DNA of 64,000 nt, from the NCBI GenBank assembly GCA_027487795.1, contig JAIYCX010000039.1, positions 355,811 through 419,810 on the forward strand. The letters are read 5' to 3'. The notes under the pieces were generated by a model. The model did no database searches, was not told where the DNA came from, and was given only the letters and a program-made list of their open reading frames with translations. Positions 1,236 to 51,603 of this stretch are shown here, piece after piece. The position numbers and the translations under genes are program-made. The DNA comes from Pseudomonadota bacterium. GTDB lineage: Bacteria > Bdellovibrionota_C > UBA2361 > SZUA-149 > DAOLCO01. Each line of letters opens with the position of its first letter. Position 1 is the stretch's first letter.

Positions 1236-1276
1236 TTCTAATTTTGTTGAAAAAGTCTTTTTAAGGTGACGTTGTT

Positions 1277-2389
1277 TTGAGTAAAAGAGATTACTATGAA
1301 GTTCTTGGTGTAAAGAAAGATTCCGCTCAAGACCAAATTAAAAAGGCTTATAGACAATTAGCTCTAAAGTTTCATCCTGACAAAAATCCTGATAATGCTG
1401 AGGCAGAAGAAAAGTTTAAAGAAGCTACTGAGGCTTATCAGGTATTAAGTAACGAAGAAAATAGAGCCAAATACGATCGTTTTGGTCATGCTGCTTTTCA
1501 GGGAGGATCTGGATTTGAAGGATTCTCAGATTTTAGCTCGTTCGGCGAAGATATTTTTGGAGATATTTTCGGTGCTTTCTTTGGAATGGGTGGTGGTAAA
1601 AGACAAAGGGTCAAAACAGGAAGAGATCTTCAGTATAATTTAGAAATTACTCTTGAAGAAAGCGCTTTAGGTATCAATAAATCTATAAAAATCAGAAGAC
1701 CAGTACCTTGTGAAGGTTGTAGTGGATCTGGTTGCCGTGAAGGATGTTCTCCTGAGCGTTGTAAGCATTGTGCAGGTCAAGGTCAAATAGCTGCGCAGGA
1801 AGGCTTTTTTAGAATTTCAAGACCATGTCCAGTATGTCGTGGACAGGGTCAGATGATTTCAGATCCTTGTCCTTCATGTGGTGGTAATGGTGAAGGGGTA
1901 AAAGAGGGAGAATTATTAGTTAAAGTTCCGCCTGGAATAGATACTGGACAAAAGCTGAAGTTACGAGGTGAAGGCGAAGTAATAAAAGATGGTAGCCCTG
2001 GGGACTTATACGTAGAGATAACCGTTAAGACTCATAAGAAATTTAAAAGACAAAATACAGAAATAATAACAGAAGTACCTTTATCATACAGTCAGGCAGT
2101 ACTTGGAGCTGAAGTAGAAGTACCTACGTTATATAGTAAAGTAAAACTTAAGGTGCCAGCTGGCACGCCTTCTGGTAAAGTGTTTAAATTAAGGGGCCAA
2201 GGGGTTCCTGATATTCAGTCAGGAATTAGAGGAGATCAGCACGTGAAGGTGTTCGTTCTTGTGCCTAAAAAAGTAAACGAAAAGCAAAAGTCTCTCCTAG
2301 AAGAGCTTGCAAAAATTGAGGGAGTCCCAGATATCGATGATCATCACAGTAGATCCTTCTTTGATAAGGTTAAAGAATTTTTTGATTAG
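1277..2389 (+). CDS. dnaJ: Co-chaperone DnaJ
   Basis: J-domain with the HPDKNP motif, Gly/Phe-rich linker, four CxxCxGxG zinc-finger repeats and a C-terminal domain. TTG start. Directly downstream of dnaK. Confidence 0.9.
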   Translation: MSKRDYYEVLGVKKDSAQDQIKKAYRQLALKFHPDKNPDNAEAEEKFKEATEAYQVLSNEENRAKYDRFGHAAFQGGSGFEGFSDFSSFGEDIFGDIFGAFFGMGGGKRQRVKTGRDLQYNLEITLEESALGINKSIKIRRPVPCEGCSGSGCREGCSPERCKHCAGQGQIAAQEGFFRISRPCPVCRGQGQMISDPCPSCGGNGEGVKEGELLVKVPPGIDTGQKLKLRGEGEVIKDGSPGDLYVEITVKTHKKFKRQNTEIITEVPLSYSQAVLGAEVEVPTLYSKVKLKVPAGTPSGKVFKLRGQGVPDIQSGIRGDQHVKVFVLVPKKVNEKQKSLLEELAKIEGVPDIDDHHSRSFFDKVKEFFD

Positions 2390-7363: not shown

Positions 7364-7969
7364 GTGTTTAATATTAAAAAAAATATCATGTTTTTTTTCT
7401 CTATAATGCTAGGTATTAATACTTTCAGTACGGTATTACATTCTGAAGATTTAAAAGTAGAGGATACTTTTAAATCTAAACCCAGTGATCTTTATCTAAT
7501 TCCATTAATAACTAACGATGGTAAAAAAACTACCCTTAAGCAATATGAGGGTAAAGTACTACTGATCTCTAATACTGCTTCTGAGTGTGGCTTTACTTAT
7601 CAGTATAAAGATTTACAAGCGCTGTATATCTCATATCAAGACAAAGGTTTCTCAGTACTTGGTTTTCCAAGTAATGATTTTGGTGAGCAAGAACCTGGAA
7701 GCGATTTAGAAATTAAAACATTTTGTGTGAAAAATTATGGTGTAACTTTTCCATTATTTCAGAAAGGATCCGTTTCTGGTGAAAATATTCAGCCTTTATT
7801 TAAATTGATAAATGAAAATTCTAATGAAGAATTTCAAGGTCCTATAGAATGGAACTTTGAAAAAATAGTAATTGATAAAAAAGGAGTTATTAGAGGTAGG
7901 TTTGGATCTTTTGTAAATCCATTAAATCAAAAAATTACAACTCTAATAGATAAATTATTAGCTGAATAA
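7364..7969 (+). CDS. Glutathione peroxidase family protein (BtuE/GPx-like), secreted
   Basis: Motifs NTASECGFTYQY and FPSNDFGEQEPG. N-terminal signal peptide. Confidence 0.8.
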   Translation: MFNIKKNIMFFFSIMLGINTFSTVLHSEDLKVEDTFKSKPSDLYLIPLITNDGKKTTLKQYEGKVLLISNTASECGFTYQYKDLQALYISYQDKGFSVLGFPSNDFGEQEPGSDLEIKTFCVKNYGVTFPLFQKGSVSGENIQPLFKLINENSNEEFQGPIEWNFEKIVIDKKGVIRGRFGSFVNPLNQKITTLIDKLLAE

Positions 7970-8738: not shown

Positions 8739-11552
8739 TTATAACATTGGAACGTCACCAGGTAACCCAAATGAATACTTCTTCATAGCTTTATCTGAAC
8801 TATTCTTAATAAACCATTCCCCTGAATGCTCTCTATAAACAGTGATATCTCCAACTCCGTCCTTATCTATATCAGTTTGACATCCCGGTTGATCACCTAA
8901 GGATCCAAACTTATCTACTATAACTGATCCATTAGCATTTGCAGAGAACCAATCAATTGTATTATTTGAATTTATTCGAGTAATAACTCTATCTTTACTA
9001 GAATCATTATCCATCTTACAACTTAAAGGAGTATCTCCTGGTTGACCCCATGGAAGTGATGAAATTAAAGTCCCGTTTCCATCTTTCACATCCCAAAATC
9101 GTACTAATTGCCAAACCGCAACATATTCATCTTTACCATCTCCATTAAAATCACCAAGTATAGGATCATGTGCCTTTCCGCCTAGTTGTATTTGAGTGAA
9201 TGCTGATCTGGAACCTTGCAATGCTGCTGATCTGTTAAAACCAGAAGTAGATTGTAATGTATAAAACATCCCTATAGATTTACGATAAACTGTAAGATCA
9301 TTTATTCCATCACCATCTGTATCTCCAATCATTGGTAGATCACCTGATAGTCCCCATTGTATCGAAGTAATAACTGAGTAACCACTCCCAGATGTTCTAA
9401 AAAACCATGTCCCAGTACTTGGTCTCCAAACTGCAAGATCAGCCTTCTTGTCTCCATCAAAGTCAGCTACTTTAGGCATATCTCCTGCTAAACCAAGTTG
9501 AAATTCTTTATGCGCCATAAAATCAAATCCAGAACTAGATGTTAGTATATAAAACATTCCATTATTTGGTCTCCATACTATAAGATCGCTCTTACTATCT
9601 CCGTCTATATCTGAGTGAACGTATTTGCTGCTACTAATTATTCCAGTAGAAAATAATATAGCTTTATTATTTCCAATTAAATCCTCTCTCGCTTGATTAT
9701 TTACTACTACAAGACTATCGCCAGAACCACCATTTGCTGGAGTAATAGAGACTGTAGATGAAGCTCCATAATCATATAAAGGGCTACCAGTAAAAGTGTC
9801 TTTATAACTTATACTAATATTACCATTTGAAGTTAGTTTAAGTTGTACTTTAATTTCTTTTTCACTTCCAGCGGTCGAGTTTAAACCATAAGGTACTGAT
9901 ACCCACGTATATATTACAGAATCACTAGTAATTTTTTCCCAAACACCACCATCAGAACTTAATGAAGATGGTATTAAATCGTCGTTAAAAACATTAATTC
10001 CAGAAAATACAGAATTTGCAAAATCAGGTGTGTTGGGAGCATTGTCATTCTGACCTAATGGAATTATTCTACCGTTAGTGGAGACTGCAAATTTATTATA
10101 ATTTCCACCATAGTATGGAAATGTAAATCCTATATTCGAAATAATATAAGCGTCATCAGCTTGAGAGATTCTATTACCTAATTGAGAATCATACTCAGAT
10201 GAAATAGAGCTTAAGTTATAAACTACAGCGTCAGGTAATGGTGCTATCGGTGTCACTTGATTAATTAAAGCACGGTATGCACTAACAATACCTGCTGATC
10301 TAACAAGCCCTGTTAAAGAACTAAGAGGTTTAGAGGTATTCATTATTCTGTTTTTTAGATTACCTACGGTAAGAGATGATTCTCTAGCTAGTAATAATGC
10401 TGCAATACCACTCACATGAGGTGTTGCCATTGAAGTCCCACTTAAATTTGTATAAGTATTTTGTAGATAAGTACTAAGAATTGAAACACCAGGGGCTGCA
10501 ACGTGAACTTTTGTACCACCATAGTTAGAAAAGTTTGCTAAATTCCCTGAAGAATCAACAGCAGCAACAGAAAGTATATTATCAATATTATAATTAGCAG
10601 GGAAACTTGCTGTTACATCGTTATTCGATGAATCATTTCCTGCTGCCGCTACAAATAAAATACCATTATCGTTTGCAGCTTTAATTGCGTTTTCAAGTGT
10701 TTGAGAATAACCACCTCCACCCCAAGAGTTACTTAGAACTCTTAGATTTACTCCTCTTCTTTTCATGTTTATTGCATATTCTATACCTGATATTGCATCA
10801 GCAATAGAACCAGAACCTGAAGCATCTAAAAATTTTATACCCATTACTTTTGTTCTACTAGCTACACCAACAACACCTCTTCCATTGTTTGCTACCCCTG
10901 CAATTGTTCCAGCACAATGAGTACCATGCCCGTTATTATCTATAGGGTTTCCAGATCGAGTAATAGCATTGTATCCATTTACATCATCTACTACTCCATT
11001 ATTGTCATCATCTATGTTATTGCCTGGAATTTCATCAGTATTTACCCAGACATTAGCCTGTAAGTCTTGATGTGTGTGTTCGATACCTGTATCAACAACG
11101 CCAACGACAACACTAGGATCTCCAGTAGTTATATCCCATGCCTCAGGAGCATCTACATCTATATCAGTGCGTCCATTGTTTTGACCTATGTTGTGTAGAC
11201 CCCAAAGTTCGCCCATTCTTGGATCTGATGGCAACGTTAAAGTGTGAACTTTGTAATTTGGCTCAAAAGTGTCAATAGTTCCATTGGCAATCAAATCTTT
11301 GATATATTTATGATTTAAAGTTCTATTTTGTTTGGTAGTTACTAAAGAAGCCCCAACTTCTGGAAAATCTCTAATTTCGTTTAAGTTTAGTTGATTTGAT
11401 AATGAAGAAGCTTGAGAATGACTCAAGTTATCAGAATATTTAACAATATACTGATTTGTTACAACTTCTTGTGCAAATGTATGTGTTGATAACTGTTGAC
11501 TTATAGATATAACAGCTAAATAACCTACTACTTTTAAATACTTATACTTCAT
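8739..11552 (-). CDS. Secreted subtilisin-like serine protease (peptidase S8) with N-terminal propeptide and C-terminal FG-GAP/VCBS-type repeats
   Basis: Catalytic triad motifs VGVVDTGI, HGTHCAGTIAG and GTSMATPHVSGIAALL. Repeated DxDGDxKxDLxVWRPxxGxW units in the C-terminal third. Signal peptide. Confidence 0.8.
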   Translation of the reverse strand: MKYKYLKVVGYLAVISISQQLSTHTFAQEVVTNQYIVKYSDNLSHSQASSLSNQLNLNEIRDFPEVGASLVTTKQNRTLNHKYIKDLIANGTIDTFEPNYKVHTLTLPSDPRMGELWGLHNIGQNNGRTDIDVDAPEAWDITTGDPSVVVGVVDTGIEHTHQDLQANVWVNTDEIPGNNIDDDNNGVVDDVNGYNAITRSGNPIDNNGHGTHCAGTIAGVANNGRGVVGVASRTKVMGIKFLDASGSGSIADAISGIEYAINMKRRGVNLRVLSNSWGGGGYSQTLENAIKAANDNGILFVAAAGNDSSNNDVTASFPANYNIDNILSVAAVDSSGNLANFSNYGGTKVHVAAPGVSILSTYLQNTYTNLSGTSMATPHVSGIAALLLARESSLTVGNLKNRIMNTSKPLSSLTGLVRSAGIVSAYRALINQVTPIAPLPDAVVYNLSSISSEYDSQLGNRISQADDAYIISNIGFTFPYYGGNYNKFAVSTNGRIIPLGQNDNAPNTPDFANSVFSGINVFNDDLIPSSLSSDGGVWEKITSDSVIYTWVSVPYGLNSTAGSEKEIKVQLKLTSNGNISISYKDTFTGSPLYDYGASSTVSITPANGGSGDSLVVVNNQAREDLIGNNKAILFSTGIISSSKYVHSDIDGDSKSDLIVWRPNNGMFYILTSSSGFDFMAHKEFQLGLAGDMPKVADFDGDKKADLAVWRPSTGTWFFRTSGSGYSVITSIQWGLSGDLPMIGDTDGDGINDLTVYRKSIGMFYTLQSTSGFNRSAALQGSRSAFTQIQLGGKAHDPILGDFNGDGKDEYVAVWQLVRFWDVKDGNGTLISSLPWGQPGDTPLSCKMDNDSSKDRVITRINSNNTIDWFSANANGSVIVDKFGSLGDQPGCQTDIDKDGVGDITVYREHSGEWFIKNSSDKAMKKYSFGLPGDVPML

Positions 11553-25957: not shown

Positions 25958-28900
25958 ATGGGGGAATTTAGTAATAAAAATGGGCAGGTTATAGCTCCTT
26001 CCTCTGACATTGAGGTAGGGAAAGACACGCCCTTAACTCTCCCTAGTGCGCCAGATAACAACCAAGATCAAAGTCAAAAAGACTCACTTAGCTTTCCCAA
26101 ATTAGACCCAAATGTCAAACTTAATACAAAATCAGAAAAACTCTTAGAAGAGCTTGCGATCTCCTTAGGCAATGCTAAATTCGACCGTGGCTTTAACATG
26201 ACCTTAGGCCAAGCCACTCACGATAATAATAACTACTCATCTCGACTACAAGTAGCAAATCAACAGATCTCAGATTTAGAACTAAAGATAAAATTTGAAC
26301 TAATAAAAAGTAACACTGCTCCCGAAGAACGAAAAGCCCAATTTGATAAGGTACAAAAATTTGCCGCTACGCGTGAGCATGAAGGACTGAATCAATTCCA
26401 AGCAGCAAAAACTGAGTACCAAAGAAGAACAGTTCAAGAAGCTGAAAAAGCAAGAAGAGAAGGAGGAGCAAGTTACGCACTAGGGGAGGTATTAACAAAA
26501 GCCACAAAATCAGCCTCTAGTCTTATTCCAACAACTAAAGAATCTGTAGAAATATTAAGCAGTGCAATATTCTCAGGCGGGGAAGGAATAGAAAAAGTAA
26601 GACTTAAAAACCTCTCACAAAGAGGAGAGTCCGTTCTTGGAACAACAGAAGAGTTTGCTAAAGGAAGTAATTCATCATTTAGCAATGCAGTCGCCCTAAT
26701 TGGAGTAGGCCTAGCCCCACTAGAGAAGGTATCAGGGATGACCCTAAACCCAGCTCTAGAGAGTGTAGACATTGGCCTTAGAGCCTCAAGAGTTGCAAGT
26801 TATAATACATTTTCGGGTAAGGATGCTCAGATTAATTACAGTGACTATAAAGAGCTAGAAGATAGAGAAGGTCTACTAAAAGCAGCGAAGCTTACTATGG
26901 ACGGTGCAAAGATAGCACTAGGAGCAGCAGCTCTTGGACCTAGCTCTTTGTCTCAATTAAGTCAGCCCATGTTAGTCTCGGGAGGGATGGGGTATGCCGG
27001 TGCCTTATCAGATGAGCTACTATCAAAAGAAGGTTTTAAATTAGGACGCTTTTTAGAGCATGGTTTTACTGGGACAGCAGATAGTTTTCTGTTCATGGGT
27101 GGGATTACGGGAATTGGGCATATAGCAGAGAAGACTGGAGCACTACATAAGATGTCATCTGTAAAGACATTCTTAAGTCTTGAGAATGGCGTTCAGAAGG
27201 AGAAGAAACTAGAGGCTATTCATAAAAGCTTTAAGGGACTAGAGATTACAAATGATGAGGCAAGGTTTGTAAGTAATCTAGTGGGTGAGATGAAAATGGG
27301 GCTAAGTGGGAAAATAGACCTGATTGATTCTCTACCAGATGTACAAAAAAGTCTGAATATTTTTTTAGAGAAGGTAGGAGATTTAAGCGCGCTAGAGATC
27401 TATGAGAAGCTTAAAAAGGATCCAGAGTATAGAAGGATGTTGGCTGGGGCAGTACTTAAGGTTGGAGTATCAGGGTTTGATGCTTTTGATGTTAAGAGCG
27501 GGACTAAGGGGATGGAGAGTCTGGAACAAACAGGAAGGATGGAAGATGGGAAGGAATTAGGGAAGTTTGTATCTTCTAAGAGTGGGAACTTAGAGAGTAA
27601 TGGGGACTTAGATTTTAGAAAAAATGGTGAGAGTATTTCAATTACCAATAGAGGAGAAGTTCCTATAGAAGTTCTTGCAGTTAATGGTAACGAATACAAA
27701 GGGTACTTTACACATACTAGAGATTTCTTTTATTTATTAGATAGAGAAGATCTTTCTTTAGCATACGGGGATATCTTAACATCAAGACAAGAAGTCGATC
27801 CAAACGGGACAGAGCATGTTGAATCATTTGTCGATAAAAATACAAAGCTAATTTTTTCTTATAAACAAAATAAAGAAAATTTATTACAAGAGAAGAAATG
27901 GAGAAGTTCTTTATTAGCACATGAGAATGAAAATAGGTCTGATATACTAGCTGGTAGAGCAGTTGATGAGAGGCGCTCATTTGAAACTCAGTTTCGATTT
28001 TTGGATAAGAATATAGATCAGGTTACTTTAAATAAAAGAATAAATGGTATCTTAGAGAGTAGTTATCTGGGGGCGGAAGGCTTGAGTTTGGCGGCAAGTA
28101 AAAAAGATAATATCGAATCAACTATCAATTTTCCTGAATTAGAATATATTTTAATTAATCTACAAGATCTAGTCAAAGAAGATAATTTTGAAGAAGGTGC
28201 TATTGAAAAACTGGACGATCTAATAACTCCTGGGAGTAGCAAACTAGTTGCACAGGGAATACTTACCTTAATAAGAAACTCTTCAAATCAATTATCTATT
28301 AAGATTTTAGACAACTTAGAGTTAATTTGCGCATATTTGATCTCATGTGATAACAACCAGATATCACGACCTATCTCTGGTATCATAGTATATGAAATCT
28401 TGCCGACGCTCTGTCAGGATACAAATGTTTCTCCATATATAAGATTAAAAGCAAAGACTATTCAAGAGAGACTAGTGTGCGAATCCTACTCATCATCTTT
28501 TGATCCTCGCTCAGTAAATAACGAAATAGGCGGCAAAGCTATATATGAAGATTCACCATTCTTTCCTGAAAGAGTTACTCTAAAAGATATCGCTAGAATT
28601 CGCAAATTAGCCAAGGATACTATATTTATCTGTAGAGAAGACGGCACTCCTGTTGCATTTAGTTATAGTTATGAAAACATTAATTCTGGAGACCCTAACT
28701 TATTGCAGCCTAGGCTATTAAAATCACTGAGAGATGAATTAAAACAGATAGAGCAAGGGGAACTTTCAAATCATATTTTACCTTGGGTAGCAATGGATCT
28801 TTATAGACATGAAGTATTATCTGGATTTTCTGAAGATTCTATAGAAGAATTTATGAACAGGATTATGCCTTCATCAATACCAAAAGAGATGATTACAGAG

Positions 28901-30487
28901 CTAGAGAAGGAATTATTTTATAAAAATATATATTTGCATAGGAGTATATATTCAAAATTAGTAATGATATTAGAAGAATTAGAAGATTCAAAAAAAGTCT
29001 TAACAGATGAAAGCAATGAAGCACCACTCGATAGCCAAAGTAATACCCAAGGTAGTATCGTAAATCCTTATTACTTCGATCCTAGTAAATATAATGAGCG
29101 AGAAAATCTTAAGGCACTGTATTTTAATGAAATGGATAATGAAAAGCTTAAACTAGTAAGACGTGAATTTGCAAATATTTTTCACGAAGAAAACTTTAAC
29201 GATGACCCGCTATATGACTTACTATCTTTAAATGAAGTTTATATATATTCCGATGATATGTACAATGCTCGTAATATTTGGGGAAATTACCTACGTAATG
29301 GACAAGAATCAAGCTTAAGCAAATTTAGGGCAGCTTTAAGAGAACGCTTAGATCACTTAATTTCATTAACAAACCAAACAAGAAGTACTTTCAATATACT
29401 AATGGATCTAGAACAAGAACGTTCGGAAGTATTCCCATTTAAAACTGAACATATTGAAAATCTATACTCCTTATTTCAAGAAGTACATCAAGGACCATTA
29501 AGATCTCATATTGAAGCTGAATTTGATATCGATCTTTCAGAAATAACTTTCAGATCACAGTTATATTTTCTTCAATTTTTACAAACTAGAGATACTGAAG
29601 GATTTATTGCATTTAAAAATGCTTTAAATAAATATCCTAATCAGAAATATAAAATTATAGAAGCCTTTGTTGCTAATGCAGAAAAGGCAACATATGCGAA
29701 ATATTTAATAGCTTTACCAAATAATTTACCAGAAACAATAGTTTCAAAAATCTTAGATAAATATCTCGAAATAATAGAATCCGCACAAGGGCTAGAAGAA
29801 CCACAAATACAAAAAGCCATCCGCTCAGCAAATCACTTTTTACATGCATATTCTATTAAAGCTAGATCTTCGGATAATCCAGAAAAAGTTATACTAAACC
29901 TAAACAAGCTCCATCATGAAATTCTAGCACTAGGAGTCCTAATAAGAGACTTAAGACGCACAGGTGCAATTAGTAATATTACTGATTTGCAAGGTCTTCA
30001 ATTTTCTTCCACATGCTCAAAAGATATTACAGATGATATTCGAAATGAAATAGCTGAACTATATCGCAGTAACTGGGAAAGTGATGCCTCATACAGTACA
30101 GAACATCGTGAAAAAGTTTTAGCAGCTCATGACAGGGCTATGAAGAATCCTGATACAAAGATCTACTCTTTTGAAACTAGCTCAGAAGTTCTAGCTTTTA
30201 TCAGAGTTGATTATCTTCCAGATGGCACAATTCACATGGGGGGATTGAATCAACGTCCAGAATTAGACCTTTCCTCTATAGGTATAACCTTACTCGAAGA
30301 AGTTATAAAACTAGAAAATCTTACTTCTGATATATTTATTGAAGTTACTAAAAAGAAAACTGAATTAATAGTTCAATATGAAAAGCTTGGATTTGTTATA
30401 GAAGCAGACAAAGTTATTATAAATTGGGAAGGAACAGGTGCGGATTTAGTAGTAATGCGCTTGCCTAGAGGTTCAATTATAAAGTAA
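25958..30487 (+). CDS. Very large (1509 aa) protein with C-terminal GNAT-type acetyltransferase domain; candidate secreted effector/toxin
   Basis: Long uninterrupted ORF with host-like AT-rich codon usage. No signal peptide. Ser/Asn/Gln-rich N-terminus. C-terminal GNAT motifs (...IHMGGLNQRPELDLSSIGITLLEEVI... and ...QYEKLGFVIE). Confidence 0.7.
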   Translation: MGEFSNKNGQVIAPSSDIEVGKDTPLTLPSAPDNNQDQSQKDSLSFPKLDPNVKLNTKSEKLLEELAISLGNAKFDRGFNMTLGQATHDNNNYSSRLQVANQQISDLELKIKFELIKSNTAPEERKAQFDKVQKFAATREHEGLNQFQAAKTEYQRRTVQEAEKARREGGASYALGEVLTKATKSASSLIPTTKESVEILSSAIFSGGEGIEKVRLKNLSQRGESVLGTTEEFAKGSNSSFSNAVALIGVGLAPLEKVSGMTLNPALESVDIGLRASRVASYNTFSGKDAQINYSDYKELEDREGLLKAAKLTMDGAKIALGAAALGPSSLSQLSQPMLVSGGMGYAGALSDELLSKEGFKLGRFLEHGFTGTADSFLFMGGITGIGHIAEKTGALHKMSSVKTFLSLENGVQKEKKLEAIHKSFKGLEITNDEARFVSNLVGEMKMGLSGKIDLIDSLPDVQKSLNIFLEKVGDLSALEIYEKLKKDPEYRRMLAGAVLKVGVSGFDAFDVKSGTKGMESLEQTGRMEDGKELGKFVSSKSGNLESNGDLDFRKNGESISITNRGEVPIEVLAVNGNEYKGYFTHTRDFFYLLDREDLSLAYGDILTSRQEVDPNGTEHVESFVDKNTKLIFSYKQNKENLLQEKKWRSSLLAHENENRSDILAGRAVDERRSFETQFRFLDKNIDQVTLNKRINGILESSYLGAEGLSLAASKKDNIESTINFPELEYILINLQDLVKEDNFEEGAIEKLDDLITPGSSKLVAQGILTLIRNSSNQLSIKILDNLELICAYLISCDNNQISRPISGIIVYEILPTLCQDTNVSPYIRLKAKTIQERLVCESYSSSFDPRSVNNEIGGKAIYEDSPFFPERVTLKDIARIRKLAKDTIFICREDGTPVAFSYSYENINSGDPNLLQPRLLKSLRDELKQIEQGELSNHILPWVAMDLYRHEVLSGFSEDSIEEFMNRIMPSSIPKEMITELEKELFYKNIYLHRSIYSKLVMILEELEDSKKVLTDESNEAPLDSQSNTQGSIVNPYYFDPSKYNERENLKALYFNEMDNEKLKLVRREFANIFHEENFNDDPLYDLLSLNEVYIYSDDMYNARNIWGNYLRNGQESSLSKFRAALRERLDHLISLTNQTRSTFNILMDLEQERSEVFPFKTEHIENLYSLFQEVHQGPLRSHIEAEFDIDLSEITFRSQLYFLQFLQTRDTEGFIAFKNALNKYPNQKYKIIEAFVANAEKATYAKYLIALPNNLPETIVSKILDKYLEIIESAQGLEEPQIQKAIRSANHFLHAYSIKARSSDNPEKVILNLNKLHHEILALGVLIRDLRRTGAISNITDLQGLQFSSTCSKDITDDIRNEIAELYRSNWESDASYSTEHREKVLAAHDRAMKNPDTKIYSFETSSEVLAFIRVDYLPDGTIHMGGLNQRPELDLSSIGITLLEEVIKLENLTSDIFIEVTKKKTELIVQYEKLGFVIEADKVIINWEGTGADLVVMRLPRGSIIK

Positions 30488-30489
30488 TG

Positions 30490-31764
30490 CTATAAATCAG
30501 TAATTGTATAAGAATCAGCAGATAATTGCTCTAATACCTTCTCTGATATCATTCCTTCTCTTACTGTAGAATATGGAATTAGAATTTTTGTATTTTTTTT
30601 GGTTTTTGTAATATTTGCAATACCTTCTCTCAGAATATTTATCTCATCATTATAGTTTAAAACTTTTCTATCTATAAGAAAGTTATGAATAAGTGGAACT
30701 TTTTTATCTAGTCTAAATTCTAGTAGAGCTAATATCTTATCATTCCAAATCGCTAGATGGCAGATACTACTATCTGGGATGATAAATTGATCAAGCATTT
30801 TATGTCTACCTTCTGTTACAAGTTTTTCAACAAGGTATTCTCTAGCTCTAAAAAACATATCACTAGTTTCACATTTACGAAGCATAAAACCAGTATTCTT
30901 AATATCAGGCATCGGTGCTTTATTTATTAATAAGAGTAAACTAGTAAGTTCTTCAACTTCATCTGTGGTAAAATTCTCAGCCGCATTAGCTAGTTTATCC
31001 GAAAATATTTCTATTAAATTATTGTAAATACTTAACCCATTATTAGTTAAAGAATAAATCTTCTGTCGTTTATCTCCCTTTGGTGAAAATTTACTAATAA
31101 TATTATTATTTTCAAAATCACTTAGGTATCTAGAAATCTTACTTGTAGAAAAAGGCAGGTTATCATCTAAATCTTTAAATCCTATCCCAGATTTGCTTTT
31201 TGCTATATCATTTAAAATTTGAAACTGAGTTAAGTTAAACTCATTTCCCATATAACTTTCACCTAACATACCTAAGGCAATTACTGCTCTTCTCTGTTCT
31301 GGTGCAAACAATCCTTCCCCTTCGCGAAGTTTTTCAGGGGGTGCTTTTAAGCCATTATTTAGTTTACGAAACAACTCAACCATCCGTAAATGTTCCCTTG
31401 GGGATAGTAAGCTGCAGCCTAGTTGTGAAATACGACTATTTAATTGATCTGCTTCAGTTAGAAGTTTTGTTCCATATTCAGTGAAAACTAAACGACGACC
31501 ACGTTTGTCTTCAAATGTTGTTTCCATACTAAGACAACCCATGCTTACTAGCTGATTTAAAAGTCTTGAAATCTTACTTTTTGAAATTCCTAGTAAATTA
31601 ACTAAGTCACTAGCAGATCTATTTGTATCGTATGCGAGGTGCGATAAAATTATGGATTCAACTGGAGACAAATCAGAAGGCAATAACATCCTAATAGCCC
31701 TCATTTTGCGCTGAGTAAGCAGGATTGAATCATGCAATTGAGTATATATATTTAGTGTAGCCAT
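30490..31764 (-). CDS. Transcriptional regulator with two MarR-type winged-HTH domains and an extra C-terminal domain
   Basis: Two repeats of the wHTH pattern (SDLVNLLGISKSKISRLLNQLVSMGC...RGRRL and FKDLDDNLPFSTSKISRYLSDFENNNII...DKRQKIYSLT). Confidence 0.6.
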   Translation of the reverse strand: MATLNIYTQLHDSILLTQRKMRAIRMLLPSDLSPVESIILSHLAYDTNRSASDLVNLLGISKSKISRLLNQLVSMGCLSMETTFEDKRGRRLVFTEYGTKLLTEADQLNSRISQLGCSLLSPREHLRMVELFRKLNNGLKAPPEKLREGEGLFAPEQRRAVIALGMLGESYMGNEFNLTQFQILNDIAKSKSGIGFKDLDDNLPFSTSKISRYLSDFENNNIISKFSPKGDKRQKIYSLTNNGLSIYNNLIEIFSDKLANAAENFTTDEVEELTSLLLLINKAPMPDIKNTGFMLRKCETSDMFFRAREYLVEKLVTEGRHKMLDQFIIPDSSICHLAIWNDKILALLEFRLDKKVPLIHNFLIDRKVLNYNDEINILREGIANITKTKKNTKILIPYSTVREGMISEKVLEQLSADSYTITDL

Positions 31765-31765
31765 G

Positions 31766-31960
31766 TTCGTATTTTATGATGATAGTTTTATAATAATAGT
31801 TTCATTCCGATATGCAATTATAAACTGGAAGTACTTAGTAATTATAAATCTATAAATAATATAGCTATTTAGACATTCTAAAACTCACATCAATAATCAT
31901 GATCAAATCAGTATAATACTACTAGATCGTCGGTGCGCGATGGGAATTGAAGCGCTGATA
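31766..31960 (+). repeat. Promoter-like repeat A, copy 1 (roughly 195 bp, 55-bp core identical to the copy at 33480-33534)
   Basis: taatagtttcattcc...aatcagtataatactactagatcgtcggtgcgcgatgggaattgaagcgctgata. The core contains an extended -10-like cagTATAAT. Confidence 0.6.
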
Positions 31961-32230
31961 TCTATGGCTCTTCCTAATGTTGAGTTCTTTATATTATTAT
32001 TTGGGTATAAGATTTTTCTGCTGTTCTCTCTTCGGCTGCATTAGAGATGGTTTAATCCCTTGCTCTGGCCGTCTCTTATTCAATTATAAATTTACTTTTC
32101 ATAATTAATTTCAAACAAAGTTAATAATGAAGAGAGAAAGAATAAATTAAGGTTATTGTTTTAAGTGGTTTTAATAAGGTTAGTTATTTACTTGAGCATA
32201 TCTAATCCATATTTTTTATTACGATAAGAT

Positions 32231-32312
32231 ATTCCGTTGAAAATAATATTTGCATTTCATAGAGTTTGAAATATTTTAATTCTATGAAATGCGATTTGCA
32301 TTATCCGGAATG
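32231..32312. promoter_or_regulatory. Nested imperfect palindrome (candidate operator or large hairpin) in the leader of the exonuclease cassette
   Basis: ATTCCG...GCATTTCATAG-(19 nt)-CTATGAAATGC...CGGAAT. Direct repeat CCGTTGAAA at both flanks. Confidence 0.25.
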
Positions 32313-32372
32313 TCCTACCGTTGAAAGGATACGCTATTGAGGGCATTTAATTTGCCCTAGAAAGAAAGTATT

Positions 32373-32891
32373 ATGAAAATTTTTTCAATCGACGCCGAAG
32401 TCGATGGACTGTACGGACCATCGTTCGCCATTGCTGTCACCGTCCGCCAGGACGGTGTAGAAATTGCGAGCTTCCAAGGAAGGATACCTGATGACGGAAT
32501 CAAGGATGGGTGGGTGAGGGAGAAAGTTCTCCCAGCCCTGAGTGACATGAAAGTCACGCATCAGACCACCGAGGCCCTCGAGGAGGCCTTCTGGGCCTTC
32601 TGGAGTGATCAAAAGGAAGGTTCCACCGTGATTGCCCACTGTGGCAGTCCGGTTGAGTCAGGACTCTTTCGGCGATGCGTCGAGAGAAATTTCGCCGAAC
32701 GACAATGGAACGGACCATTCCCACTTCATGAAGTGGGAACACTGCTCCTCGCAGTTGGGGCGGACCCCGGCAGCGTTGACAACTACAACAAAAGGCATGG
32801 CCTAGTCGTTCCCTTTGCAGGGGTGGCGCACCACCCCATGTACGATGCGGCTGCTGCCGCGGTTGCTTGGGAACACGCTATCGCTAAGTAA
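32373..32891 (+). CDS. GC-rich small DEDDh-type (DnaQ/Orn-like) 3'-5' exonuclease, probably horizontally acquired
   Basis: Exo I motif FSIDAEVDGLYG and Exo III motif HHPMYDAAAAA. GC far above the surrounding DNA. Confidence 0.6.
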   Translation: MKIFSIDAEVDGLYGPSFAIAVTVRQDGVEIASFQGRIPDDGIKDGWVREKVLPALSDMKVTHQTTEALEEAFWAFWSDQKEGSTVIAHCGSPVESGLFRRCVERNFAERQWNGPFPLHEVGTLLLAVGADPGSVDNYNKRHGLVVPFAGVAHHPMYDAAAAAVAWEHAIAK

Positions 32892-32940
32892 AGTAAAAAG
32901 CTCTGCTTAGAATAAAAAACTAAGCAGGAGTTAAAATAAC

Positions 32941-32992
32941 TAAACCCACTCAGCCTTGATTAAAGTTAATCTAATTCGCTGAGTGGGTTTTT
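32941..32992 (+). terminator. Rho-independent terminator after the exonuclease gene
   Basis: AAACCCACUCAGC-(loop)-GCUGAGUGGGUUUUU. A second smaller hairpin GCUCUGCUUAG...CUAAGCAGGAG lies at 32900-32930. Confidence 0.5.
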
Positions 32993-33023
32993 CAAAAGGT
33001 ATATAATTATTCTTTCTCTTTCT

Positions 33024-33137
33024 TTATTATCTTTACCTTGACTCCACCCCATTTTGCGATTTCCCATCGCGAGCTTATTTCTTAGCCTAACATAATACGA
33101 AAGTTGTATGTATCTTAGTTTCATCAAAGTGGGGTGG
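33024..33137. repeat. MITE-like 114-bp element with 23-bp terminal inverted repeats, copy 1
   Basis: TACCTTGACTCCACCCCATTTTG ... CAAAGTGGGGTGGGCTGAAGGTA. Second copy at 34693-34806. Confidence 0.5.
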
Positions 33138-33159
33138 GCTGAAGGTAGTATCAAAAAAT

Positions 33160-33355
33160 ATTAAGCACTATATATCCTAATCAGTTCGCTTTCACTATCC
33201 AACCAATTATACTTATCATTAATAGCATCAAGCCCATTTTTACCTAGGCTGATTCTTTTATCTATGTAGGAATAAGAATTCTCTATACACCTTGCCGCAT
33301 ATTCCAGATTACCGGATTCAAAAACGTATCTACAGTTTGTTTTCAGTTCATTATC
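33160..33355 (-). pseudogene. Diverged in-frame remnant (64 codons plus stop) of the C-terminus of the GT4 glycosyltransferase gene at 34820-35998
   Basis: Reverse-complement translation ...NCRYVFESGNLEYAARCIENSYSYIDKRISLGKNGLDAINDKYNWLDSESELIRIYSA* versus the intact gene ...NCGYVFESGSPESAARYIEKAFLSKEERDLLGQNGLKAINDKYNWSISEKELIKIYSA*. Same position relative to the MITE-like element. Confidence 0.55.
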
Positions 33356-33534
33356 ATAATTTTAGAATAATAGTTTCATTCCAGTATGTAAACATATACT
33401 GAAAATACTCAACGATAATAAATCTCTCACTAATATAATAACTTAGATATCCTAAAACTCAAATCAATAATTCCGATTAAATCAGTATAATACTACTAGA
33501 TCGTCGGTGCGCGATGGGAATTGAAGCGCTGATA
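33340..33534 (+). repeat. Promoter-like repeat A, copy 2
   Basis: Same architecture as 31766-31960. Identical 55-bp core at 33480-33534 containing the -10-like TATAAT. Confidence 0.6.
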
Positions 33535-33970
33535 ATCAAAAGGCTGAGAAAGACGGGTAGAGAGTTTGATAAGGTTAAGGCTGCAAGTACTAAGTTAAGA
33601 AAGCAGACCTTACTAAATGTTAAAATTCTAGAGAACAAGCAGTGTTAAAAAACACAGCAGGGGTTCTTTAGAACAAAGGTTTTGTTAAACGTTTGCAAAC
33701 TCAAAAAACATCTTTCTTCTCTATAAAGAAGAATCAATAAATTCTTTTTTATAGAGGATTAAAAATCCTGAGTTTGTGTTCTTTATATTATTATTTGGGT
33801 AGAAGAAAGCATAATTGCTCTTGATAAACTGAGTCACTAAAAGTTTTATAAACTAAGAGACTATAAAAAAACAAAGTGAAAAGTTTAACAAGAGCGGTGA
33901 TTTTTGGTTTTGGTACTCTGCTTTTGAAGAGTACCGAGGTTTTATCGCTCGTAAGAGCGAAGGAGAAAAA

Positions 33971-34561
33971 ATGAGAAAGAAAAAAGGAACCCTGCTTGCT
34001 TATCGCAAGCAGGGTGGTTTTATAACAGAGATTCAATACGGAGAGCACGGTGCTCTTTTTATCGAAAAAGTTGAATGCAGAACTGTTTCAGTTCTGCATT
34101 ATGGTTGGTATCAAGATGGCGGTTATAGGCCGTCTGTCAGATATGATGTCTCACGGACAGCTATGATGTGCCACCATCGGTGGCTGGAAACGGGGTACAA
34201 TTGGACCCCAAAACCAGTGGCCTTTGCAAGGGAGCATTGCGAGGATGTCGAATTATCAATTGCTACCGGCGATGGATATTTCGATTTGCAGAATAGAAAA
34301 GTCTCCGGCTGGTGGCTTTCCGTAAAGGAAGCTACCTTGGAAAGGAACTCTTTTAGAAGTTCCCGCTTTGAGCGGGATTACTTCAAAAGAAATTACCCAA
34401 GAGGTAATTGCCATAATTGCGGATTCGACTTGCAAGAACACTTCCAAAAAATCCGCCAAGATGGCGGATATGTCTACCGACTGGAGGAGGGTTCTTCAAC
34501 CTTCCTGTTTGATTGGGAGGCACATGACCGACCAAGGGTAATGAATACCCTTCTCCCTTAA
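33971..34561 (+). CDS. GC-rich hypothetical protein with Cys/His clusters (possible zinc-binding), probably horizontally acquired
   Basis: 196-aa ORF with about 50% GC. CHHRW, CEDVEL and CHNCGF clusters. Strong AGGAG Shine-Dalgarno. Hairpin-rich 5' leader. Confidence 0.5.
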   Translation: MRKKKGTLLAYRKQGGFITEIQYGEHGALFIEKVECRTVSVLHYGWYQDGGYRPSVRYDVSRTAMMCHHRWLETGYNWTPKPVAFAREHCEDVELSIATGDGYFDLQNRKVSGWWLSVKEATLERNSFRSSRFERDYFKRNYPRGNCHNCGFDLQEHFQKIRQDGGYVYRLEEGSSTFLFDWEAHDRPRVMNTLLP

Positions 34562-34596
34562 AGTTCTCCTAGAAGGGATATAGGCTGAACTGTTTA

Positions 34597-34640
34597 TGAG
34601 CAGTGACAGCCAACGAATGTTGTATGTCACTGCTCTTTTA
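34597..34640 (+). terminator. Rho-independent terminator after the GC-rich hypothetical gene
   Basis: GAGCAGUGACA-(loop)-UGUCACUGCUC followed by UUUUAAAAAU. Confidence 0.5.
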
Positions 34641-34692
34641 AAAATATTTAGGATATGGAAGTCTACTATTCTTTCACTATCTCGATATTTAC

Positions 34693-34806
34693 TACCTTGA
34701 CTCCACCCCATTTTGCGATTTCCCATCGCGAGCAAATTTCTCGGCCTAACATATGACCATAGTCAAATGTATCTTAGCTTCATCAAAGTGGGGTGGACTG
34801 AAGGTA
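34693..34806. repeat. MITE-like 114-bp element with 23-bp terminal inverted repeats, copy 2 (immediately downstream of the GT4 stop)
   Basis: TACCTTGACTCCACCCCATTTTG ... CAAAGTGGGGTGGACTGAAGGTA. Confidence 0.5.
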
Positions 34807-34819
34807 GTATTCAGATATA

Positions 34820-35998
34820 TTAAGCACTATAAATCTTAATCAATTCTTTCTCACTAATCGACCAATTATATTTATCATTAATAGCTTTAAGCCCATTTTG
34901 GCCAAGTAAATCTCTTTCTTCTTTTGATAGAAATGCTTTTTCTATATACCTTGCCGCTGATTCCGGACTACCCGATTCAAAAACGTATCCACAGTTTGTC
35001 TCAAGTACAATTCTTTTTAAAGGTTCTGCATCTGAAACTAACACTGGCTTAGCAAGTGCCATATATTGAAAAAGTTTATTTGGTATGGTGGTATTTATGA
35101 ATTCATTATTTAAATGAGGAACTAAGCATAGATCTGAGTTATATATTAACGTGGGCAACTCACTAAACGAAACCCAACCAGAAAAACTTATACAATTTTC
35201 TAATTTAAGTTTTGTAACAAGTGCTTGCAGTACGCTAAGATAATTTCCTGAACCTACAATTACTAATTTTATAGAATTATTTCCGCGATTACTTAGAATA
35301 TGAATAGCATTGATTATATCTTCTAATCCGCGCTCTATCGTAATCACTCCAGCATATAAAAGTACAAACTCTTTTTGCTTTTCTTTCTTTAACAAAGTAT
35401 TGTCTGTCATAAACTGCTCTAAATCCACAGTATTACTAACAACAAATATTTTATCTGCTGCAATTCCTTGCTTAATTAATCTATCTGCTTGTTCCTCAAC
35501 AACCAAGATAATTTTATCAAATACCTTAACAGAAAACCATTCAACTAATTTTGCTATTCGATAATTTTTAAAAACTCTCGTTTTCCAATCAACCTTACCC
35601 CAGCCCTTTAGTGCTTCTGGATAATTTTCCCACATGTCTAAAACTATAGGGATTCTTAAAATTCTTCCTACAAACCATACTGCTGGAGCTAGTGCGATAT
35701 CTACAACTTGAAGTGCTTGAATTTTATTTTCTATACAAAAAGATACTAATTGAAAAATCCAAAGTGGATTAAAGAAAATTGGAAATTTTAGAATTTTATT
35801 TACTGTTCTACTTTTGAAAGTTGGTATTAGTCTTCTTACATTAATACCATTGTATATTTCATTTGATAGTTTGAAATCACCATAGTTATTACAAAATACG
35901 AAAATTTCATGCCCTGCTGATATAAGGCTTTTTGCTTCTTTTTCTATTCTTTCAGCTGGAGGGAACTCTCCTCCTTGGTATACAATACATATTTTCAT
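34820..35998 (-). CDS. Family 4 (GT-B fold, GT1-type) glycosyltransferase
   Basis: C-terminal EGFGL-type region (…AKPVLVSDAEPLKRIVLETNCGYVFESGSPES…). 392 aa. Confidence 0.75.
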   Translation of the reverse strand: MKICIVYQGGEFPPAERIEKEAKSLISAGHEIFVFCNNYGDFKLSNEIYNGINVRRLIPTFKSRTVNKILKFPIFFNPLWIFQLVSFCIENKIQALQVVDIALAPAVWFVGRILRIPIVLDMWENYPEALKGWGKVDWKTRVFKNYRIAKLVEWFSVKVFDKIILVVEEQADRLIKQGIAADKIFVVSNTVDLEQFMTDNTLLKKEKQKEFVLLYAGVITIERGLEDIINAIHILSNRGNNSIKLVIVGSGNYLSVLQALVTKLKLENCISFSGWVSFSELPTLIYNSDLCLVPHLNNEFINTTIPNKLFQYMALAKPVLVSDAEPLKRIVLETNCGYVFESGSPESAARYIEKAFLSKEERDLLGQNGLKAINDKYNWSISEKELIKIYSA

Positions 35999-49368: not shown

Positions 49369-51270
49369 TTATAGTCTTGTTTGAATGCCAAAGATTATAG
49401 AAGCTCCGTAAGTTCCGTATCCTGGTATTTCTTGATAATCCTTATCTAATAAGTTCTGAACTCTGATATATGGAGTCAAATAATCAAAACCAGAATATTC
49501 AGTGACTGCATTAACTAAAATATAGTCATCCATATTTTTACCGTCAGAGTCTATTCTATCGGCGATACCAATCACATCTGTTCTTAGTACTAAGTTATCA
49601 ACTGGCAGTACTCGTAGTGACAATCCACCCTGATGACGAGCTCTTCTTGGTAAGACTGAATTCGAATCTCTATTTTCCGAGTCTAAATAAGTATAACTTA
49701 AGGTAGGCTCTACATATTGACTAACTTTAAAAGAAACTTTTGATTCTATACCAGTAGCATATGCACTTTGTATATTCTCTGGAGCATTAGTTAATACGTC
49801 AAAAGAAATTAAATCATCAAAGTTGTTATAAAAAAAAGTTATGTCCGATTTAAAATATGAAGTAGTTGTTTCAAATCCTACATCATAAGATTGACTCTTC
49901 TCAGCATCAAGATTTGGATTAGAAAATCCTGGAAAATACAAATCACTCAGCGTTGGTGCTCTATAACCAGTGCCATAACTTGTATGCACTCTTGATGATA
50001 CAGCTTCAAAACTTTGTGATGCTGTTAATCTGTAAGTAAAGATATTTCCAAACGAAGAATCAAAATCTTCTCTAGCCCCAGCTGTTAAGTTAGTTCCTTC
50101 AAATGGAGAAAACTTTTGATCAGCAAATATGCTATTTATATCCCTACTTTTATTAAATTGCTCTAATGAATTCCCATCGTTTCTTTCATAAGAATAACCA
50201 AGTAAAGTTGTTATATCATCAGAAAATTTAAAAACGTTCTGTTGTTGAACATTATAATTTGTAGATTTAAAAGCATAATTATTAAAGCTAGTTTCTGGAT
50301 CTAATCCCTTAAAATAATCAGAATTATAAGCTAGAACTAAAGTGGGATTAAAAAATATTTTTTCTTCTTTTTCTACTTGACCAAACTTAAGACTAGACTG
50401 TACAGACTCTCTTCTTTGTCTGTAATCTAATGCATCTATAGAGCCAGTAGCAAAATCAAAACCATCTAACTCAGAATTACTTTTAAGATATCTAAAAGTT
50501 GGGGTTATTTCTACATCTTCAATTGTAGCAGTTGCCTTCCCTACTACGCTAGCTGCGGAATATGGATCATTCTCTGGATTATTGTTGGAAGTTTCTGCTA
50601 CAGATGTACCGTGTAGCGAAAACCATGAAGTTCCAATAAAGCCTTTTAGATTTTCAGTTCCTCCTGTAGTGGTAGCTTGATATCTCTGCTCACCATATGA
50701 TCCAGCCTCTGTATTAAGAGTAAGAGATTCTTCATCTGATGGGCCTTCAGTAATAATATTTATTACCCCGCCTAAAGCATCACTTCCATAAAGTGTACTT
50801 TGTGCTCCCTTTAAAACTTCTACTTTTTTAACACCAAGTGAGTTAAAATCAGCGAAATCAAATTGACCACTTAAATTTTCATTAATAGGAATACCATCTA
50901 CCATTACTAGACTTTGACTTGATCCTGCACCTCTTAAAAACACACTGGTAGTTCTACCTGGACCTCCAGATTGAGTTACTTGTAGGCCAGGTACACTTCT
51001 TAGTGTATCAGCCAAAGTAAAATCACGTCTTTCTTTTATTTCCTGTGATTGAACTAAATTATAAGTTGATCCAACTTCTTTAGTTTCCTCTTCGAATCTG
51101 TTAGCAGTAATTATCATTTCGGGAATAGACTCTTCTGAGGCCCCTGAAAGTGTCTCCGCTACACTAAAGTCAGCTAATATTAATTGTGATAAAGGCAAAG
51201 AAGTAAATGCGCAGGCACTAAACATTCTCGCCAATGTTTTTTTGACGTTCATTCCGATTCTCCAGTACAT
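49369..51270 (-). CDS. btuB: TonB-dependent receptor, BtuB-like (cobalamin uptake inferred from the upstream riboswitch)
   Basis: Plug motif VMVDGIPINENLSG...VEVLKGAQSTLYGSDALGGVINI. Beta-barrel. Signal peptide. B12 riboswitch immediately upstream. Confidence 0.7.
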   Translation of the reverse strand: MYWRIGMNVKKTLARMFSACAFTSLPLSQLILADFSVAETLSGASEESIPEMIITANRFEEETKEVGSTYNLVQSQEIKERRDFTLADTLRSVPGLQVTQSGGPGRTTSVFLRGAGSSQSLVMVDGIPINENLSGQFDFADFNSLGVKKVEVLKGAQSTLYGSDALGGVINIITEGPSDEESLTLNTEAGSYGEQRYQATTTGGTENLKGFIGTSWFSLHGTSVAETSNNNPENDPYSAASVVGKATATIEDVEITPTFRYLKSNSELDGFDFATGSIDALDYRQRRESVQSSLKFGQVEKEEKIFFNPTLVLAYNSDYFKGLDPETSFNNYAFKSTNYNVQQQNVFKFSDDITTLLGYSYERNDGNSLEQFNKSRDINSIFADQKFSPFEGTNLTAGAREDFDSSFGNIFTYRLTASQSFEAVSSRVHTSYGTGYRAPTLSDLYFPGFSNPNLDAEKSQSYDVGFETTTSYFKSDITFFYNNFDDLISFDVLTNAPENIQSAYATGIESKVSFKVSQYVEPTLSYTYLDSENRDSNSVLPRRARHQGGLSLRVLPVDNLVLRTDVIGIADRIDSDGKNMDDYILVNAVTEYSGFDYLTPYIRVQNLLDKDYQEIPGYGTYGASIIFGIQTRL

Positions 51271-51294
51271 CCCCCTCGGGACTCTAGATTTATA

Positions 51295-51505
51295 TTAGCC
51301 AATAATGCCTGGTATCCTGGCTTGCAGTCATCCTACTAAGAGACAATCCTTCCCAAAATTTGCTCTATTTAAATAATAAATAGGAAAAAATCAGTGGACA
51401 TGAATAGAGTCTCTATTCGTCGTGCATACAGTTGCGGGGCAGCGAAAGATTTTAACTTTACTTCCCAGAGAGAATATTAATACAGTTAATATTAGTACTC
51501 TCTAT
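51295..51505 (-). promoter_or_regulatory. Cobalamin (AdoCbl) riboswitch in the btuB leader
   Basis: Minus-strand RNA contains GGGAAGUAAAGUUAAAAUCUUUCGCUGCCCCGCAACUGUA (consensus GGGAA..GGUG.AAAUCC...GUCCCGCAACUGUA). The downstream B12 box is AAGCCAGGAUACCAGGCA (consensus AGYCAGGAGACCUGCC). Confidence 0.6.
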
Positions 51506-51603
51506 TCATAAAATTTTTATAATCTTATGAAAAACATAATTGGTGCTAGTTAAAATTAACTAGCATAGAATAACTAACACTATATATATTTATGGTAAAG
51601 TAC

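Follow-up and report, generated by a model that had tools for sequence, protein, structure and literature searches.

The window, by which we mean the whole 64-kb stretch of DNA analysed, carries housekeeping, flagellar and polysaccharide-synthesis genes around a locus that is bounded by a MarR-type regulator gene on the left and an intact family-4 glycosyltransferase (GT4) gene on the right. Between these two genes lies a tandem pair of ~1.6-kb units, unit A from ~31765 to 33343 and unit B from ~33344 to 34999. In both, a shared promoter/leader module is followed by an ORF unrelated to that of the other unit, one or more terminator-like hairpins, a 114-nt element with terminal inverted repeats, a 13-nt spacer and a GT4 3' end. 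The features of the locus are, from left to right:

30490-31764, minus strand: MarR-type regulator gene, encoding a double winged-helix protein, divergent from cassette A and forming the left anchor of the locus.
31773-31960, plus strand: 5' module D2, copy a, comprising a leader and promoter-like sites; the final 56 nt (31905-31960) match copy b at every position.
31972-32012, plus strand: shared 41-nt block D4, copy a, present in both leaders; copy b, at 33766-33806, is 88% identical.
32373-32891, plus strand: ORF172, the cassette A gene, predicted to adopt a DnaQ-like DEDDh 3'-5' exonuclease fold; its GC content is 56%, against 34% for the window.
32900-32992, no strand assigned: two terminator-like hairpins between ORF172 and element copy 1, read from the sequence, the first (32900-32931) with its T-run on the minus strand and the second (32942-32992) with its T-run on the plus strand.
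33008-33340, no strand assigned: direct repeat D1, copy a, made up of 26 nt, the element, the 13-nt spacer and the GT4 3'-end remnant, and 80% identical to 34667-34999.
33034-33147, no strand assigned: element copy 1, in which the closing stem P1 is formed by 33034-33056 pairing with 33125-33147 and encloses the P2 hairpin (33057-33069) and the variable P3/P4 region (33070-33111).
33161-33346, minus strand: in-frame GT4 3'-end remnant of 62 codons, sharing its IYSA* terminus with the intact gene and showing 64.5% identity (tblastn) to GT4 residues 332-393.
33341-33346, no strand assigned: junction of units A and B, read from the alignment, with TGT(T) microhomology to GT4 (34996-34999) and to the edge of D2 copy a at the MarR start (31765-31768).
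33347-33534, plus strand: 5' module D2, copy b, abutting the GT4 remnant.
33971-34561, plus strand: ORF196, the cassette B gene, with no family match and 46% GC.
34598-34639, plus strand: terminator-like hairpin followed by TTTT between ORF196 and element copy 2, from the sequence and an inverted-repeat scan.
34667-34999, no strand assigned: direct repeat D1, copy b, made up of 26 nt, the element, the 13-nt spacer and the last 60 codons of the intact GT4.
34693-34806, no strand assigned: element copy 2, with an inverted repeat that extends to 34690-34715 / 34784-34809 and P2 at 34716-34728.
34820-35998, minus strand: intact GT4 gene, its stop codon 13 nt from element copy 2.

The two units share more than 500 bp of flank, including a promoter-like module of their own. 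The 188-bp D2 (31773-31960 versus 33347-33534, 83% identical) lies upstream of the two unrelated ORFs and contains a promoter-like TAGACA-16-AATAAT, found by promoter scan, and a perfect TATAAT, read from the sequence at 31912-31917 and 33486-33491. The 335-bp direct repeat D1 is 80% identical between units and includes the GT4 3' end (about 60-62 codons) together with the element. An automated terminator scan omits the hairpins at 32900-32992, whose loops exceed 8 nt. The 5' leader of ORF172 also holds an imperfect hairpin at 32239-32305 (28-nt arms, 75% complementary, 11-nt loop), which could be an operator or a leader structure.

The cassette ORFs are unrelated to each other and have a GC content above that of the shared flanks. 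ORF172, from a family lacking annotation, has no match in Pfam, PADLOC or PHROG, and its AlphaFold model (pLDDT 94) matches DnaQ-like DEDDh 3'-5' exonucleases (RNase T, ExoX and the PolC exonuclease domain), a fold that is also consistent with the invariant Asp, Glu and His columns of its family. ORF196 matched nothing in any family or homology search. Homologues of ORF172 are many, at 45-74% identity, and occur in Oligoflexia, several CPR phyla, Gammaproteobacteria and Bacillota, and in oral streptococci. The gene order of an Oligoflexia MAG mirrors that of the window: a large GNAT-containing protein, a MarR-type regulator on the minus strand, an ORF172 homologue, other genes and GT4 on the minus strand. 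Because this order is common to both, the interval between the MarR-type gene and GT4 is to be seen as a conserved variable locus and not as a transposon landing site, and the position of ORF172 beside the regulator is probably ancestral. A word-based search for the relatives' loci returned no homologue of the MarR-type protein at E<=1e-10.

Three further observations concern the surroundings. The MarR-type regulator stands beside a 1509-aa protein with a weak C-terminal acetyltransferase signal and no Pfam match (25958-31764 for the two genes), and the pair is kept beside variable cassettes both here and in L005 (positions 1-3260). A cobalamin riboswitch (Rfam RF00174, 56 bits) at 51290-51514 on the minus strand lies directly upstream of a gene for a BtuB-like TonB-dependent B12 receptor (49369-51270, minus strand). 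The sole tRNA gene of the window, tRNA-Leu(GAG) at 22465-22548 on the minus strand, had no integrated element that we noticed beside it.

The first-pass annotation had described the element as present twice, at 33024-33137 and 34693-34806, with 23-bp terminal inverted repeats. Sequence reading and an arm search place the two 114-nt copies at 33034-33147 and 34693-34806, so that both copies and their inverted repeats are real, the coordinates of copy 2 are exact and those of copy 1 had been set 10 nt too low. The left arm, TACCTTGACTCCACCCCATTTTG, is the same in both copies, and the right arm reads CAAAGTGGGGTGG[G/A]CTGAAGGTA. The description of one end as the near-perfect reverse complement of the other is borne out by Watson-Crick pairing at 20/23 positions of copy 2 and 19/23 of copy 1, to which one or two G-T pairs are added on the plus strand. 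In copy 2 the inverted repeat reaches 26 nt (34690-34715 / 34784-34809) at 88% complementarity, so that the terminal inverted repeats of this non-coding element are overall 23-26 nt long and 83-88% complementary. Searched with up to three mismatches, the 23-nt arm consensus matches only the four arms in 64 kb, with 0 matches expected from shuffled sequence, and the inverted-repeat feature is therefore far beyond chance.

Overall, 101/114 positions are identical between the copies. The interior is indeed about 68 nt long, and its measured identity of 82% (56/68) lies close to the 75-80% first proposed. Each copy begins 13 nt past a minus-strand TAA stop, that of the intact GT4 gene (34820-35998) for copy 2 and that of the 62-codon remnant (33161-33346) for copy 1, in agreement with the earlier placement of both copies just downstream of a GT4 3' end or its remnant. 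What the first-pass annotation had missed is that the similarity runs well past 114 bp, over 33008-33340 versus 34667-34999 at 80%, with 220 bp of flank shared by the two copies beyond the element itself.

This extended homology bears directly on the proposal that the element is a non-autonomous transposon, which the data do not support. Both copies lie inside the 335-bp D1, that is, within one tandem segmental repeat, and no dispersed copy was found in an unrelated context of the window. Target-site duplications are missing at either copy: the flanks, TTATTATCTT / GTATCAAAAA for copy 1 and CGATATTTAC / GTATTCAGAT for copy 2, contain no direct repeat. Neither a cognate transposase with matching inverted repeats nor any transposase or integrase domain, including tyrosine recombinases, was found among the 57 ORFs of at least 120 aa in the 64-kb window. 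No further copy was found in the window, the public collections or 55 related loci. The exact two-arm pattern CCACCCCAYTTTG-N50-80-CAAARTGGGGTGG had 0 matches in the GTDB genomes (596 Gb) and in IMG/VR, where single-arm and leader patterns also returned 0. No phage or plasmid record matched the 3.3-kb region by BLAST, and a covariance model of the two copies, run over the window and the 55 related loci, recovered those two alone. A single JGI metagenome match to the two-arm pattern (L003) lies in a high-GC coding region with an unrelated interior and was set aside as chance. Two copies from one local segmental duplication, lacking target-site duplications, is the outcome that the earlier annotation had itself named as speaking against mobility, here obtained within the 64-kb window and the public collections. 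The two copies arose by duplication or exchange of the whole unit, not by transposition of 114 bp.

A true MITE could still have entered once downstream of GT4 and been carried along passively when the segment was duplicated, its other copies and its transposase lying outside the window, in the rest of the 565-kb contig or elsewhere in the genome. The size of 114 bp, the 23-26 bp terminal inverted repeats, the lack of coding capacity and the position between convergent genes are typical of bacterial MITEs. Moreover, the element is missing from the sole close relative at hand, a Logan contig with a 90%-identical GT4 (L004). The form of that absence, however, does not resemble an empty site. Homology to the window runs from 36262 down to 34829 and then gives way to complete divergence, with a breakpoint 22 nt outside the element, and nothing past the breakpoint matches, so that no clean 114-bp empty site exists in this contig. 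There the GT4 ends EEN* with a simple hairpin after it, whereas the corresponding stretch of the window reads SA*, then 13 nt, then the element. What the comparison shows is a replaced region and not a 114-bp presence/absence polymorphism. Together with the lack of target-site duplications, the restriction to two copies in a single duplicated context in 64 kb, the absence of a transposase from the window and the chance nature of the only metagenome match, this makes a passively carried MITE unlikely, and the distribution of differences between the copies, given below, argues in the same direction.

The unit duplication is old, because the GT4 codons differ between the units (dS about 0.62 for the remnant versus the intact gene) as much as those of the window differ from those of L004. 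The remnant, the window GT4 and the L004 GT4 are equidistant at synonymous sites (dS about 0.62-0.69), with ω at 0.36, and the dN/dS of the remnant was accordingly discarded as a means of telling in-place duplication from import. The junction at 33341-33346 looks like an illegitimate tandem-duplication junction, and its sequence would also fit Campbell-type re-insertion of an excised unit by homologous recombination. No third GT4 remnant was found beyond unit A when the sequences of the locus were compared.

Against this background of divergence, conservation within the element is uneven. The 5' arm and P2 (41 nt) show 0 differences between copies, the 3' part including the 3' arm (36 nt) shows 2, and the P3/P4 interior (37 nt) shows 11; the left flank together with the GT4 remnant (123 nt) shows 32. 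Arms and P2 thus differ at 2/77 positions versus 32/123 in the flanks (Fisher p=4.5e-6), whereas the interior (11/37 versus 32/123, p=0.68) drifts as the flanks do. A comparable pattern is seen at the 3' edge of the promoter/leader module, where a 56-nt perfect block stands in a 76%-identical background (p=4e-6). The simplest reading is that the closing stem and P2 have been under purifying selection in both units. A passive MITE copy is unlikely on these grounds, as such a copy should decay evenly, yet here the arms stay conserved while the interior drifts. Since the stem is conserved also in the unit that abuts a dead GT4 fragment, any function of the element would be tied to the cassette and not to GT4 itself.

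The same pattern weighs on the view that the element has no function and is a chance or relic palindrome, its copies kept similar by local gene conversion. That there are two copies in one genome, no homologues found and a close relative (L004) without the element would all agree with such a view. Conversion, however, would have to hit two tracts exactly on the arms and yet skip the 37 nt between them, and it is hard to invoke because two separate conserved tracts coincide with the two arms. The pattern also recurs, as the 56-nt perfect block, at the promoter/leader module, which plausibly has a function. Conversion confined to the arms stays formally conceivable, and we consider a functionless palindrome highly improbable.

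Two contigs of the same organism in the Logan assembly of SRR16126830 (L001 and L002) are broken off 30 nt into the perfectly repeated blocks of 41 and 56 nt. Such breaks are expected because a k=31 assembly graph meets a repeat at these points, which shows why the locus fragments in assemblies of this kind.

Each copy is predicted to fold into a four-way junction, in which a 21-pair closing stem, interrupted by a conserved G-G / A-U / C-C internal loop, encloses three small hairpins. As RNA, copy 1 reaches -39.4 kcal/mol (z = -4.7) and copy 2 -41.1 kcal/mol (z = -5.7), and folding is stable on both strands, as RNA or as DNA (z between -3.4 and -5.7). Both copies retain the stem mismatches G-G and C-C. 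In the fold and covariation check suggested in the first-pass annotation, the fold is stable, and the base-change check, made on two sequences only, counts 0 double-sided (compensatory) changes and one U-A to U-G change on the plus strand, with 95.9% of cells paired.

That U-A to U-G change is the sole stem substitution, and together with a second, fixed U-G pair it mildly favours the plus strand; read on the minus strand, the two stem pairs become A-C mismatches. On the plus strand, hairpins with T-runs (32942-32992 and 34598-34639) precede the elements. No terminator parts the GT4 stop from the element, so that the element must belong to the GT4 3' UTR on the minus strand. The evidence on the strand conflicts, with the G-U pairs pointing to plus and the logic of transcription to minus. 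The element is not an intrinsic terminator, because no T-run follows the closing stem on either strand as read in the sequence, and the single match to the element in the terminator scan is the small P2 hairpin of copy 1.

An 11-mer, CGCGATGGGAA, occurs four times in the window and only in these units, at 31936-31946 and 33510-33520 in the leaders (plus strand) and at 33061-33071 and 34720-34730 in the P2 hairpins (minus strand). Readings as a protein site, a terminal repeat or a means of pairing 5' with 3' RNA were considered and rejected, as the local alignment score of 22 is within chance (shuffles 18 +/- 3). Complementarity between 5' and 3' flanks was also not enriched over mismatched pairs across 38 ORF172 loci.

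As an alternative to transposition, the first-pass annotation had offered a structured RNA or an attachment site employed by the cassette system. This suggestion agrees with the findings, given that the element is fixed in each cassette with a stem conserved far above its surroundings; the two sequences show no covariation. The two components of that suggestion lead to separate rivals. In the first, the element would be a hairpin recombination site (an attC-like or attachment site) for cassette capture or exchange beside GT4, the duplicated GT4 3' end serving as a surrogate gene end on the incoming cassette. Each cassette ORF is followed by one imperfect palindrome with conserved outer stems and a variable centre, and the stem mismatches are retained in both copies. 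The ORFs have no relation to each other and exceed the shared flanks in GC, and unit B is flanked by direct repeats that hold a gene 3' end, a configuration known from elements integrating into gene ends. A multistem motif recurring in consecutive intergenic regions has been noted as possibly an unusual attC (Weinberg et al., 2017; PMC5737381).

The details of the element fit such a site poorly. Its termini (TACCTTG... / ...AAGGTA) lack the attC R''/R' consensus (RYYYAAC / GTTRRRY), and the sole GCCTAAC, an internal one, is unaccompanied by GTTAGGC. In the stem, one A-T pair stands between two symmetric mismatches, G-G and C-C, an arrangement that resembles a small unpaired spacer, while bulged, extrahelical bases are absent. 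The window holds no integrase or recombinase, tyrosine recombinases included, and each unit has its own promoter-like module within a shared flank of more than 500 bp, unlike integron cassettes. The unit junction (33341-33346) is ~195 bp from the element and outside the palindrome, and serial site-specific integration would leave a third GT4 remnant beyond unit A, where none is present. A recombination site is thus rather unlikely. Inspected by eye, the element fits none of the dif/Xer-like, attC-like, hammerhead, hairpin-ribozyme or group II domain V motifs.

The second component, a structured RNA, gains interest from the company that ORF172 keeps elsewhere, and the element might belong to a new class of structured RNAs of cassette arrays, a counterpart of the hammerhead ribozymes and DUF3800-associated RNAs of related arrays. 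ORF172 homologues are found in small-ORF arrays punctuated by hammerhead-like ribozymes and DUF3800-IX RNA. One such array, from another lineage (L009, with L017 covering the same contig region), consists of small ORFs, including an ORF172 homologue, and reuses a 181-nt 5' module at 97% identity before unrelated ORFs, with shared 3' hairpins. Three hammerhead matches were identified in L009, at 3742-3796 (plus), 7029-7107 (minus) and 7550-7628 (minus), with E from 3e-6 to 8e-5, below the Rfam gathering score and with the CUGAUGA...GAAA core intact. In L017, hammerhead sequences lie at 5747-5791, 10539-10570 and 10870-10914, including two further hammerhead-like ones seen as repeats. DUF3800-IX RNA (RF02968, scoring over the gathering threshold) accompanies a DUF3800 gene, immediately beyond its 3' end and in the opposite orientation, in L009 (5589-5657, minus), L017 (7589-7657), L019 (3503-3571) and L020 (10337-10405). 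The study that describes the DUF3800-associated motifs, and that also discusses the possible attC mentioned above, treats them as structured RNAs of unexplained function (Weinberg et al., 2017; PMC5737381).

A long stem closing a junction of several stems, 41 invariant nt and G-U pairs that favour the cassette strand would suit an RNA of this sort. On the other hand, the Rfam covariance models, including those for hammerhead, twister, twister-sister, pistol, hatchet and DUF3800, gave no match on the element or the leaders (31500-35100), either at the gathering score or at E<=10, and no hammerhead, twister, pistol, hatchet or hairpin ribozyme core is readable in the element. No homologue of it was found in the 55 related loci, the two copies show no covariation, and terminator hairpins stand upstream on the cassette strand. 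The hammerheads of the related arrays sit in a different position, in the 5' leader of the next ORF (L009/L017), so that the notion of an element in the same position as the hammerheads holds loosely only. Between the element and these hammerhead and DUF3800 array RNAs there is no similarity of sequence or model; what they have in common is a setting of reused intergenic modules around unrelated foreign ORFs. A new RNA class is, on balance, quite improbable.

The account that we favour, tentatively and with a probability of roughly 45%, is that the element is a fixed, selectively maintained structural component at the 3' boundary of a duplicated ~1.6-kb cassette and acts as a folded single strand. 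The whole ~1.6-kb unit would have been duplicated or exchanged by ordinary recombination, leaving the junction at 33341-33346 with its TGT microhomology, after which selection would have held the closing stem and the first inner hairpin near-identical while the interior and the flanks diverged by 25-30%. The folded single strand, RNA or ssDNA, would act between the cassette gene and the converging GT4 transcript. The element would be transcribed as GT4 3' UTR, 13 nt after the stop, and would also be met by read-through from the cassette gene. The 23-bp stem with its conserved internal loop may then serve 3'-end protection, RNase III-type processing or insulation, and it is in one of these capacities that the element would probably work as a folded transcript. 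A point against this structural-module account is that the relative with a 90%-identical GT4 (L004) does without the element.

Taken by itself, the element is a modest finding, a lineage-specific intergenic palindrome whose mobility is unsupported. Its value comes from the context. In a two-unit array that places unrelated genes of foreign composition between reused promoter and 3' modules, it marks the 3' boundary. That array occupies a locus whose order of large GNAT protein, MarR-type regulator, variable genes and GT4 is also kept in an Oligoflexia MAG, and one of its genes has a predicted DEDDh exonuclease fold; elsewhere, the ORF172 family belongs to arrays punctuated by hammerhead and DUF3800-IX RNAs, the biology of which is unexplained. 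It is conceivable, if improbable, that the element is the first seen example of a cassette-boundary module, either a structured RNA that stands in for hammerhead/DUF3800-type RNAs or a non-integron hairpin recombination site that swaps foreign ORFs between conserved promoter and 3' modules. Were the element a functional RNA or a recombination site, it would offer a handle on how such arrays are built and expressed.

Several known systems resemble the element in part. Correia/NEMIS elements of Neisseria, RUP of Streptococcus pneumoniae and ERIC of enterobacteria are non-coding, intergenic MITEs of ~100-150 bp with terminal inverted repeats of ~25 bp. Bacterial MITEs often lie between convergent genes and are co-transcribed, their long RNA hairpin affecting mRNA processing. 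The element shares with Correia, RUP and ERIC its size, terminal inverted repeats, non-coding nature, convergent-gene position and fold into a long hairpin, but differs in having no target-site duplication, dispersed copies, empty site or transposase in the window, and in that its copies share 220 bp more of flank.

The attC palindromes of integrons are 57-141 nt long; like them, the element could act as folded single-stranded DNA. In integrons and CALINs, as here, an imperfect palindrome with a conserved outer stem and a variable centre follows each ORF in a series of unrelated genes of foreign composition. Unlike attC, the element lacks R''/R' and extrahelical bases, no IntI is present, the units carry a promoter module and a gene-end fragment, and the unit boundary lies outside the palindrome. 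Phage 21 and e14, which integrate in icd, are integrative elements whose attachment sites provide a surrogate gene end. The present unit is similarly flanked by direct repeats of the 3' end of a protein gene that is kept intact; it differs in the lack of an integrase, in a length of just 1.6 kb and in a leftmost unit without a displaced remnant.

With the structured RNAs of cassette arrays (PMC5737381), the element has in common its place in an array with the ORF172 family and a multi-stem junction closed by a long helix, and it departs from them in lacking a covariance-model match, a ribozyme core and covariation and in being confined to one genome so far. A further likeness is to REP/BIME-type hairpins and to other hairpins that act as 3'-UTR stabilisers or insulators between convergent genes. 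Compared with REP/BIME-type hairpins, the element, which is not known to recur genome-wide, is much larger, branched into a four-way junction and marked by 41 invariant nt, and it appears larger and more constrained in sequence than hairpins of 3' UTRs and convergent junctions would need to be. What it shares with all of these is a stable stem that has no T-run, stands between converging units and follows closely on a stop codon, here after 13 nt.
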